Source of the DNA: a virus
Taxonomy: Duplodnaviria; Heunggongvirae; Uroviricota; Caudoviricetes
IMG/VR virus record: IMGVR_UViG_2909246061_000005
Reading direction: 5' to 3' (one strand)
Length of the DNA stretch: 32,531 bases
Shown here: piece after piece, positions 10,091 to 11,065 of the stretch
Position numbering within the stretch: position 1 is the stretch's first letter
Layout of the letters: every line of letters begins with the position of its first letter
Program-made: the position numbers and the translations under genes
The notes under the pieces: generated by a model
What the model was told of the DNA's origin: nothing
Seen by the model: the letters and a program-made list of their open reading frames with translations, nothing else
Database searches by the model: none

Positions 10091-10486
10091 CTAACCTCGC
10101 ATGTCAAAGCCAGATTTCTGAAAATCTCTGTAGACTTCCGGATTGTTGAAGGCCGGAAATTTGGCTTTATGAGCTGCGGACTTTATCGCTTCGCAATAGG
10201 CTTTATCACCGTTACTGGTAGATATTTTTAACGCCGTGCCATCCTGAGAGAATTCCATATGCAACCTGCATTTTTTCCCTTTCCAGTTATGCGGCTCATC
10301 AAGTTTGGCATTAATTGCAGCTCTGATTCCCCGCGCTTGCGCCCCCCATTCATCCTGATCATCCCAGCGTCCTGAACTGCAACTACCTGTAGCAGTAGTT
10401 TTGTGGCAATCTGAAGGGTGTAAAGGTGTGCATCCCGCAACAAAACCGACCCAAAAAGTCAACATAACGATTTTCTTTAATCCCAC
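10091..10486 (-). CDS. TolA C-terminal (domain III)-like lipoprotein, paralog 1
   Basis: 131 aa; GTG start with strong SD GAGGAG; signal peptide plus lipobox FVAGC; C-terminal KKCRLHMEFSQDGTALKIS ... FPAFNNPEVYRDFQKSGFDM resembles TolA domain III and paralog 2. Confidence 0.7.
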   Translation of the reverse strand: MGLKKIVMLTFWVGFVAGCTPLHPSDCHKTTATGSCSSGRWDDQDEWGAQARGIRAAINAKLDEPHNWKGKKCRLHMEFSQDGTALKISTSNGDKAYCEAIKSAAHKAKFPAFNNPEVYRDFQKSGFDMRG

Positions 10487-10636
10487 TTCTTGCTCCTCAA
10501 TCCATTAAAATCTCAGCAATAGTAGTTGTTACGTCCGCCACTGGCTCAGAGCTGACTATCCGCTAAATTTAGCTCAGTGCCGTAGCTGTGTCAGAACAAA
10601 CCTAAGCCGAAACCGTTTATTACAAAACAATAAATA

Positions 10637-11065
10637 TCAGGGTTTAAAATCCAGCACCCCATTTTGAAATACTTTATATACTTCCGGCGAAGGAGGGGCA
10701 GGTATATCAGCATTCTTTATCGCATTCATCGCTTCACGACATAAATCGAGGTCTCCACTTTCTCTTTTAACCTCCAGTAGAAGGCCATTCGGGGCCATAT
10801 GCATTCTCAGTGTACACTCTTTTCCTGAATACTTACTCGCATCCCCGAACTGTTTTTCGATGGCGCTCTTGATTTGATGGGCATACAGACGGATATCCTC
10901 ACTAACATCAGAAGTACGTTCAGATGAACTCACATACTGTGTCTCTATTGCTTTATCGGAGTAATATGATGTACGGTCATGATAATTTGTCGATACAGCA
11001 TCAGTGCACCCGATAATAATCCCACTAATAATCAACGTAAGAATTGATGCGCTACGAAAACCCAT
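10637..11065 (-). CDS. TolA C-terminal (domain III)-like lipoprotein, paralog 2
   Basis: 142 aa; ATG with SD GAGGAAAA; lipobox IIGC; C-terminus YAHQIKSAIEKQFGDASKYSGKECTLRMHMAPNGLLLEVK...IPAPPSPEVYKVFQNGVLDFKP closely parallels recalled E. coli TolA (YAGQIKSAIESKFYDASSYAGKTCTLRIKLAPDGMLLDIK...IPKPPSQAVYEVFKNAPLDFKP). Confidence 0.8.
   Translation of the reverse strand: MGFRSASILTLIISGIIIGCTDAVSTNYHDRTSYYSDKAIETQYVSSSERTSDVSEDIRLYAHQIKSAIEKQFGDASKYSGKECTLRMHMAPNGLLLEVKRESGDLDLCREAMNAIKNADIPAPPSPEVYKVFQNGVLDFKP

Follow-up and report, generated by a model that had tools for sequence, protein, structure and literature searches.

Lipoproteins carrying TolA domain III between the Q and holin genes of a Rac-type prophage: putative co-receptor decoys on mobile elements

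What use could a prophage of Escherichia coli have for two small lipoproteins that resemble one domain of the host protein TolA? The question is raised by a virus record of 32,531 nt (IMG/VR IMGVR_UViG_2909246061_000005; Caudoviricetes), called the window here, in which two genes on the minus strand, A and B, lie between a Q-like late antiterminator gene and a holin gene. A first-pass annotation of the letters had described them as a pair of lipoproteins that mimic the C-terminal domain III of TolA (TolA III) and occupy a moron position. We propose that A and B are decoys giving their host tolerance to Tol-dependent colicins and filamentous phages, a prediction from sequence on which our belief and our doubt are about evenly balanced. 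The two reading frames were found at exactly the positions and with exactly the lengths first given for them, and their parts are as follows.

10091-10486, minus strand: gene A (A family), encoding a 131-aa lipoprotein that ends in a TolA domain III, from the open reading frame, Pfam TolA_C and PDB matches
10430-10486, minus strand: signal peptide and lipobox of A, MGLKKIVMLTFWVGFVAGC then TP, with Cys19 and Thr at +2, read from the sequence
10358-10429, minus strand: linker of A, residues 20-43, with the invariant C27...C36 (C27-x8-C36) and an SGRWDDQDEWG motif
10094-10357, minus strand: TolA-III-like domain of A, residues 44-131, with the C-terminus FDMRG, from an AlphaFold2 (AF2) model (predicted local distance difference test score, pLDDT, ~90) and Foldseek
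10637-11065, minus strand: gene B (B family), encoding a 142-aa lipoprotein that ends in a TolA domain III, from the open reading frame, Pfam TolA_C and PDB matches
11006-11065, minus strand: signal peptide and lipobox of B, MGFRSASILTLIISGIIIGC then TD, with Cys20, Thr at +2 and Asp at +3, read from the sequence
10640-10903, minus strand: TolA-III-like domain of B, residues 55-142, with the C-terminus LDFKP, from the HMMER alignment, residue mapping and AF2

The similarity of A and B to TolA III is far beyond chance. Both proteins match the Pfam family TolA_C (PF06519) well above its cutoff of 25 bits (A, 54.6 bits, 1.3e-14; B, 82.6 bits, 2.4e-23), and phmmer searches against the TolA III chains of the PDB (1S62, 3QDP, 1TOL and 2X9A) placed A at 5e-9 and B at 5e-28. 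E. coli TolA is 33.8% identical to A over 77 residues and 60.5% identical to B over 86 residues (TolA 336-421). The AF2 domain of A superposes on 3qdp with a root mean square deviation of 1.1 Å and a TM-score of 0.92 (Foldseek). The AF2 model of B, with secondary structure H-H-E-E-H-H-E, is moderately confident (pLDDT 58.6), which we attribute to a shallow alignment, and its five best Foldseek matches are all E. coli TolA III at 60% identity (including 2x9a, 3qdp and 1tol). The positions of TolA Cys363 and Cys388 are conserved as C73 and C98 in A and as C84 and C109 in B. The mimicry of domain III that had been proposed by eye was thus borne out by the Pfam profile, by the searches against the PDB and by the predicted structures.

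A and B are not bona fide TolA proteins, as they are without the anchor that couples TolA to TolQ and TolR and without the helical domain II (131 and 142 aa against 421 aa), and they are encoded outside the tol-pal operon. No counterpart of TolA domains I and II was found in either protein, the N-termini being lipoprotein signal peptides instead. Matches to NCBIfam's models of full-length TolA extend over no more than the final ~80-100 positions (model positions ~265-387), and neither protein reaches the 213-bit cutoff of the full-length TolA equivalog NF007065 (A, 53.7 bits; B, 107.8 bits). With TIGR02794 (cutoff 59.45), B passes at 75.6 through its C-terminus alone and A fails at 47.2.

The export signals of both genes are well formed, and the lipoboxes (VAGC and IIGC) and the Thr at +2 were confirmed as first described. 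Gene A starts with GTG, 6 nt downstream of the Shine-Dalgarno sequence GAGGAG, and encodes a KK n-region, a hydrophobic h-region (mean Kyte-Doolittle value 2.1) and the lipobox VAGC19; Cys19 is invariant in the alignment of the A family, where +2 is Ala, Ser or Thr. Gene B starts with ATG, preceded by the Shine-Dalgarno sequence GAGGA, and encodes an R4 n-region, a hydrophobic h-region (mean 2.4) and the lipobox IIGC20, with G19, C20 and T21 invariant in alignments of B variants. By the Lol rule, a lipoprotein with Thr rather than Asp at +2 is sorted to the outer membrane in a Lol-dependent manner. A and B are accordingly expected to be outer-membrane lipoproteins, both lipidation and localisation being predicted. 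RefSeq/PGAP names A a "TolA C-terminal domain-containing protein" and gives it a shorter start (124 aa) that drops the charged n-region; this start looks wrong given the intact and selected full-length frame. Between Cys19 and the domain, the linker of A hardly varies from genus to genus and is under as much constraint as the domain itself, and it is predicted to be disordered (AF2 pLDDT <50 for residues 1-39). When the linker segment CSSGRWDDQDEWG was set by eye beside the TolB box of colicins, GASDGSGWSSENNPW (PMC2821528), a resemblance was not supported, since neither the essential positions of Asp, Ser/Thr and Glu nor the spacing of Trp agreed.

The first-pass annotation had also called A and B a divergent, paralogous tandem pair. 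That they are homologous holds, but they are not a recent tandem duplicate: their mutual identity is 28-29%, B is closer to TolA than to A, and they have separate module boundaries. Homology between the window and loci with B alone ends ~25 nt past the B stop codon, which indicates that A is a separate module and not a duplicate of B. Judging by these boundaries, A and B are two independently acquired modules.

Both genes are under purifying selection. Nei-Gojobori estimates of the ratio of nonsynonymous to synonymous substitution rates (dN/dS), which for A came from comparisons with plasmid, Citrobacter and Enterobacter copies, were 0.09-0.34 for the domain of B and 0.4-0.8 for its signal peptide and linker; for A they were 0.06-0.13 for the domain and 0.10-0.14 for the signal peptide and linker, analysed together. 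Variants of B at 91, 74 and 66% identity all retain the 142-codon frame, the signal peptide and the lipobox. In hundreds of complete E. coli genomes, B bears the RefSeq/PGAP label of a tolA pseudogene ("incomplete, missing N-terminus"), as in the annotated locus L001, where the pseudogene at 12738-12998 corresponds to window 10637-11065. The dN/dS values and the intact variants show that this label is wrong, so that, whatever the function of B may be, an intact and selected gene is mislabelled in hundreds of RefSeq genomes.

If A and B bind the ligands of TolA III, the residues that make the known contacts should tell which. The N-terminus of TolB, the N1 domain of the g3p protein of Ff and If1 phages (g3p-N1) and colicin N bind TolA III by β-strand addition to β3, A415-K420 (L417-P421) (PMC7391070, PMC4339652), and a proline at D418 or K420 abolishes binding (PMC4339652). 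Colicin A (ColA) binds the opposite edge, at L375-P380 together with K368, K379 and K396 (PMC3365938). Affinities for TolA III are ~2-3 µM for ColN-T, ~12-15 µM for g3p-N1 and ~40 µM for TolB (PMC4339652). Residue mapping places the β3 segment L417-D418-F419-K420-P421 at an identical LDFKP in B and at FDMRG in A, which keeps the pattern of hydrophobic, Asp, hydrophobic and basic residues, and no proline stands at the positions equivalent to D418 and K420 in either protein. Y340, I344, I348 and F412 are all kept in B; A has Gln for Y340 and keeps the other three. At the ColA strand, LLDIKP in TolA, B has LLEVKR, preserving LLxxK, and A has ALKIST. The cation-π lysines K368, K379 and K396 correspond to H, K and K in B (two of three kept) and to E, S and H in A (none kept). 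From this loss of lysine contacts in A as compared with B, it is plausible that the two proteins would cover different ligands.

The arrangement of the locus resembles that of a moron, a cargo gene set between phage genes, and its elements are listed below.

12110-12652, minus strand: Q-like late antiterminator (DUF1133), Pfam 2.5e-107; the Phage_antitermQ match is marginal, at 26.1 against a 26-bit cutoff
11176-11362, minus strand: STnc100-family small RNA (sRNA) element just upstream of the promoter-like site of B, Rfam 86.6 bits against a gathering score of 47
11095-11124, minus strand: sigma-70 promoter-like site TTGAGC-18-TATAAT, a consensus match only, 10/12
9938-9965, minus strand: intrinsic-terminator-like hairpin AGCTCGC-TACG-GCGAGCT then TTTTTAT (hairpin 9965-9948), a consensus match only
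9624-9839, minus strand: holin (essD-like), in the downstream flank
9127-9624, minus strand: lysozyme, after the holin
8666-9142, minus strand: Rz/Rz1, after the lysozyme

The -10 hexamer of the promoter-like site ends 29 nt upstream of the B start codon. The site is identical in phage mEp460_ev081, and the 91% variant of B keeps the -35 hexamer and has TGTAAT at -10. The terminator-like hairpin, a strong one, lies after A and before the holin. Consensus matches as they are, the two signals together would make a classical moron layout and fit expression in the lysogen. Presence of the cargo is variable, as expected of a moron: the same Q gene (DUF1133) precedes other content in locus L014, and B is found alone in loci L010-L015. 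Placement in the moron slot from Q to the holin, claimed at first reading, stood up to these comparisons, and B-type genes elsewhere lie at the exact position of stx.

Homology between the window and mEp460 stops at 11256, inside the STnc100 element. A copy of this element also lies upstream of B in mEp460 (L003 5444-5634), and L014 carries copies on both sides of B (5704-5877, 6599-6803 and 6854-7061). This suggests that STnc100 elements are recombination boundaries at which cargo moves in and out of the slot; alternatively, they may be part of a late-promoter leader. No tRNA genes lie in the gap from Q to B in the window. Related loci have Met and Arg tRNA genes in this gap, with Thr and Gly tRNA genes in addition in L014. 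The GC content of the window locus has no distinctive value and gives no sign of foreign origin.

The two families differ in distribution, that of A being much the wider. Of 5426 complete E. coli genomes, 772 carry the block of A and B at 99% identity or more. The block is also present in phage mEp460_ev081, there preceded by a Q of the lambda type and followed by a lysis cassette unlike that of the window; this was the only phage with genes A and B in a tblastn search of the phage collection. The B family was found in E. coli and Shigella only (888 of the 5426 genomes), essentially always on the chromosome, and in every context examined between a Q gene (of the PF03589 type or DUF1133) and a holin, often alone. 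The order there is Q, tRNA-Met(CAT)/tRNA-Arg, B, a nanS-p-like esterase, DUF1378, DUF826 and holin, the place that stx takes in Shiga toxin (Stx) phages. At the junction of Q and holin, the pair is present in Rac-like prophages and mEp460; B often stands without A, and A also occurs outside phages.

The A family is not phage-specific. It comprises 370 clusters at 78-99% identity in Citrobacter, Enterobacter, Klebsiella, Serratia and Raoultella, and in Enterobacter kobei/cloacae and Citrobacter amalonaticus an A-type gene is chromosomal and syntenic, amid ordinary metabolic genes. A copy 88% identical to A is carried by ~600 E. coli plasmids. In the IncI1 backbone it directly follows the NikB relaxase (nikA-nikB-A...trbC-trbB-trbA), for example in pB7A_99 (L017 5958-6389), and a further copy adjacent to nikB lies at L002 6004-6435. 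In pO157 (ATCC 43894, L016 5964-6395) it follows a truncated nikB and precedes toxB by ~1.8 kb. Among 1.8 billion representatives, a profile search found 188 relatives, mostly of 100-170 aa with L-x-G/A-C lipoboxes; the named ones are from Enterobacterales and bear automatic TolA names only.

More distant versions were found by tblastn on ~690 further plasmids, mostly of Klebsiella. On 379 plasmids, mostly mobilizable Klebsiella plasmids of ~10-12 kb, the gene for a 123-aa TolA-III lipoprotein, whose sequence ends in NAPLDFRP, precedes that for a 121-aa periplasmic protein with a signal peptide and a TonB C-terminal domain, and in the one such plasmid inspected (NZ_CP031718, L018) this pair, at 1512-2245, lies beside genes for a colicin-like tRNase bacteriocin, its immunity and lysis. 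The Klebsiella pair has the look of an equivalent of A and B that covers two pathways, Tol and Ton. As a separate observation, the Klebsiella IncR plasmid NZ_CP141857 (L019 5217-6246) encodes a 144-aa TolA-III lipoprotein (LLITAC then S) directly downstream of a thioredoxin-fold DsbA/TraF-like protein, a neighbour of interest because TolA III contains a disulfide.

How might such proteins protect a cell? As decoys, A and B would be exported and held by a lipid anchor at the periplasmic side of the outer membrane, where in each a flexible tether of ~25-35 residues would leave TolA domain III free. Since they are without domain I, the TolQ/TolR-coupled anchor, and domain II, the periplasm-spanning helix, they would bind the ligands of TolA III but transmit no proton-motive force. 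Beside the porins, they would catch Ff or If1 phages by the N1 domain of g3p, and colicins N and A by their translocation domains, before these meet TolA, and TolB-dependent colicins would possibly be caught indirectly, through a hold on the N-terminus of TolB. Import would then stall, leaving the lysogen or the plasmid host tolerant. Since the parasite ligands bind TolA III more tightly (~2-15 µM) than TolB does (~40 µM), a modest amount of decoy could protect without causing a full tol phenotype. The carriers, namely prophages, IncI1 plasmids and the Klebsiella plasmids on which a TolA mimic is joined by a TonB mimic, fit a protective role. Phage If1, which is filamentous and depends on TolA, uses IncI pili as its receptor (PDB 2x9a).

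Levengood-Freyermuth reportedly obtained colicin tolerance from periplasmic TolAIII in 1993. Periplasmic g3p-N1, which sequesters TolA, brings about tolerance to colicin A and a 4-log drop in phage uptake (PMC10424213). Exported periplasmic TolAIII perturbs Tol function, so that the outer membrane becomes leaky and periplasmic proteins are released (PMC6195910). What the analysis shows are the genes, their signal peptides and lipoboxes, the fold, the conserved strand β3, purifying selection, an architecture like that of a moron and carriage by mobile elements; ligand binding, protection and the outer-membrane location are inferred.

Several points weigh against a decoy. Protein A is without Y340 and all three of the lysines that contact ColA, and lipidation, localisation and promoter activity are predictions for both proteins. 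The position between Q and holin implies late lytic transcription as well, when protection of the host would be pointless. A TolA III decoy should compete for TolB, which could be costly. The stable chromosomal A genes of E. kobei/cloacae and C. amalonaticus, in non-mobile contexts, fit a housekeeping role in the envelope equally well. Full-text literature searches found no experimental study or conceptual treatment of proteins of this type, PADLOC has no model or match for A or B, and PHROG 5772 is listed as "unknown function". What the literature did yield was a "TolA protein" mentioned in passing on a cloacin-like plasmid (PMC10269471). A ciprofloxacin-induced CP-933O gene linked to TolA (PMC11125564) was considered as evidence of expression and set aside, as it concerns a tail-fibre gene.

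Among the other explanations, the likeliest is that A and B are dominant-negative modulators of Tol-Pal, the free TolA III capturing the N-terminus of TolB, uncoupling TolB-Pal from TolQRA and loosening the outer membrane. We regard this as unlikely. The payoff would not be protection but vesiculation, release of periplasmic or phage-encoded products such as a toxin, or easier lysis by the spanins. In its favour, β3, the strand that binds TolB (PMC4339652), is conserved, and cells with exported TolAIII leak periplasmic proteins (PMC6195910). The genes also stand in the late operon directly upstream of those for the holin, lysozyme and Rz/Rz1, and B takes the stx slot of Stx phages. However, the same genes occur on IncI1 plasmids, pO157, Klebsiella plasmids and Enterobacter chromosomes with no lysis cassette beside them, and in the window the promoter-like site and the terminator-like hairpin set them apart from the holin; the suggestion in the first-pass annotation that they modulate Tol-Pal during lysis is weakened on both counts. 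The low affinity of TolB for TolA III would moreover call for substantial expression, and stable carriage in 14% of complete E. coli genomes under strong purifying selection argues against chronic harm.

It is distinctly unlikely, in our view, that A and B belong to an endogenous family of envelope lipoproteins with a physiological role that has nothing to do with competition, such as a docking partner, on the side of the outer membrane, in Tol-Pal or in some other envelope process, and that mobile elements picked up the family later. The chromosomal and syntenic A genes beside metabolic genes in Enterobacter and Citrobacter are in its favour, as is the size of the class to which the 188 relatives point, broad and made up mostly of small lipoproteins, and the motif in the A linker (C27...C36, SGRWDDQDEWG), constrained like the domain, suggests a specific partner. 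Yet in E. coli both families lie essentially on prophages and plasmids only, and K-12 is without both genes and has no known defect from this. The recurrence beside relaxases, the pair near a bacteriocin operon in the one Klebsiella plasmid inspected, and the partner with a TonB C-terminal domain on 379 plasmids, which looks like a two-pathway countermeasure, also speak against such a role.

That the genes are non-functional debris, B being a 3' piece of tolA that was picked up and A a passenger in decay, as the PGAP pseudogene flag on B and its passing of the TIGR02794 cutoff through the C-terminus only might suggest, is very improbable and is effectively refuted by the domain dN/dS (0.09-0.34 for B, 0.06-0.13 for A), by a B frame of 142 codons with start, Shine-Dalgarno sequence, signal peptide and lipobox intact down to 66% identity, and by the presence of B at 99% identity or more in 781 genomes.

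Taken as co-receptor decoys, A and B can be set against known systems. With TolA III of E. coli (residues ~334-421; 1S62, 3QDP, 1TOL, 2X9A, 3QDR) they share the fold and the Cys positions, but they have a lipoprotein signal in place of the inner-membrane anchor and are encoded on mobile elements outside tol-pal. With the recombinant periplasmic TolAIII fusions (Levengood-Freyermuth 1993, Wan & Baneyx 1998, both as cited in PMC6195910) they have in common a free, exported domain uncoupled from its motor; those fusions are soluble, over-expressed laboratory constructs, whereas A and B are natural, predicted to be lipid-anchored, and equipped with native signals and conserved linkers. Phage T5 Llp, phi80 and N15 Cor and F-plasmid TraT, with lambda Bor as a lipoprotein moron expressed in the lysogen, are small outer-membrane lipoproteins of phages or plasmids that have a moron-type organisation and shield the host from incoming phages or colicins, as A and B would. 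Cor, Llp and TraT inactivate an outer-membrane receptor, whereas A and B would imitate a periplasmic co-receptor. No sequence homology of A or B to known exclusion or defence families was found, Pfam detecting TolA_C and TonB_2 only. The immunity given by the g3p (pIII) of filamentous phages works at the same interface of g3p N1 and TolA III and blocks the entry of Tol-dependent phage and colicin A (PMC10424213), but it is a mirror image: there a phage protein sequesters TolA, and here A and B would sequester the ligand of the invader. The Klebsiella pair of NZ_CP031718 again combines a mobile TolA III lipoprotein (LLLTAC then K) with an adjacent second gene for an energy-transducer domain; it differs in that the partner is TonB_C and not a second TolA III, in that it is on a plasmid and not a prophage, and in its location, in one example, near a bacteriocin operon; the literature on it, too, amounts to a mention in PMC10269471.

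What was already known of A and B is their automatic domain annotation (PGAP names, PHROG 5772), and the nearest concepts are exclusion by Cor, Llp and TraT and the dominant-negative TolAIII of the laboratory. Beyond the window, it is possible, though we lean somewhat to doubt, that periplasmic co-receptor decoys, in the form of tethered TolA III and sometimes with a secreted TonB C-terminal domain, are in wide use among the mobile elements of Enterobacterales as a new broad-spectrum envelope immunity. Such decoys would absorb bacteriocin translocation domains and the pilot proteins of filamentous phages ahead of their arrival at the energised Tol and Ton machines. Were such a class real, it would be present in about one fifth of E. 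coli genomes (including pO157 and IncI1 carriers) and on common Klebsiella plasmids, with A and B covering different sets of ligands. Protection would then follow a new logic, the imitation of a periplasmic co-receptor rather than the blocking of a surface receptor. Such decoys could account for some of the widespread natural tolerance to group A colicins and klebicins in E. coli and Klebsiella, and they would matter for therapies based on bacteriocins or filamentous phages. For IncI1 plasmids they would be a plausible countermeasure to pilus-specific filamentous phages.

The window itself is a Rac-type E. coli prophage, and an identical annotated region is present in strain E308, where the gene order is pinR, tfaR, tail fibre, trkG, rzpD, rrrD, essD, A and B, DUF1133, DUF1364 and DUF1367. 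Two Rfam matches elsewhere in the window are consistent with its Rac identity.

30797-30975, minus strand: RalA, the antitoxin sRNA of the Rac RalR/RalA system, at the far end of the window
1273-1471, minus strand: IS009 sRNA family

In E. coli K-12 MG1655 the Rac prophage runs from ydaW directly to an rzpR/rzoR remnant and trkG (L020, 1422752-1423782), so that, compared with window ~8666-24000, the whole segment of nin region, Q, A and B, holin and lysozyme is deleted. A and B are absent from K-12 because Rac has lost everything there between ydaW and the rzpR remnant, and this absence probably explains why they escaped study. The early/nin region of the window also contains ~7 kb of non-phage cargo at ~14350-21665 (placed from the L001 annotation, 16453-23765), which encodes a DUF1971 protein, a major facilitator superfamily (MFS) transporter, a gamma-glutamylcyclotransferase, a LysR regulator, a DUF2254 protein and a transporter of the betaine/choline/carnitine transporter (BCCT) family.

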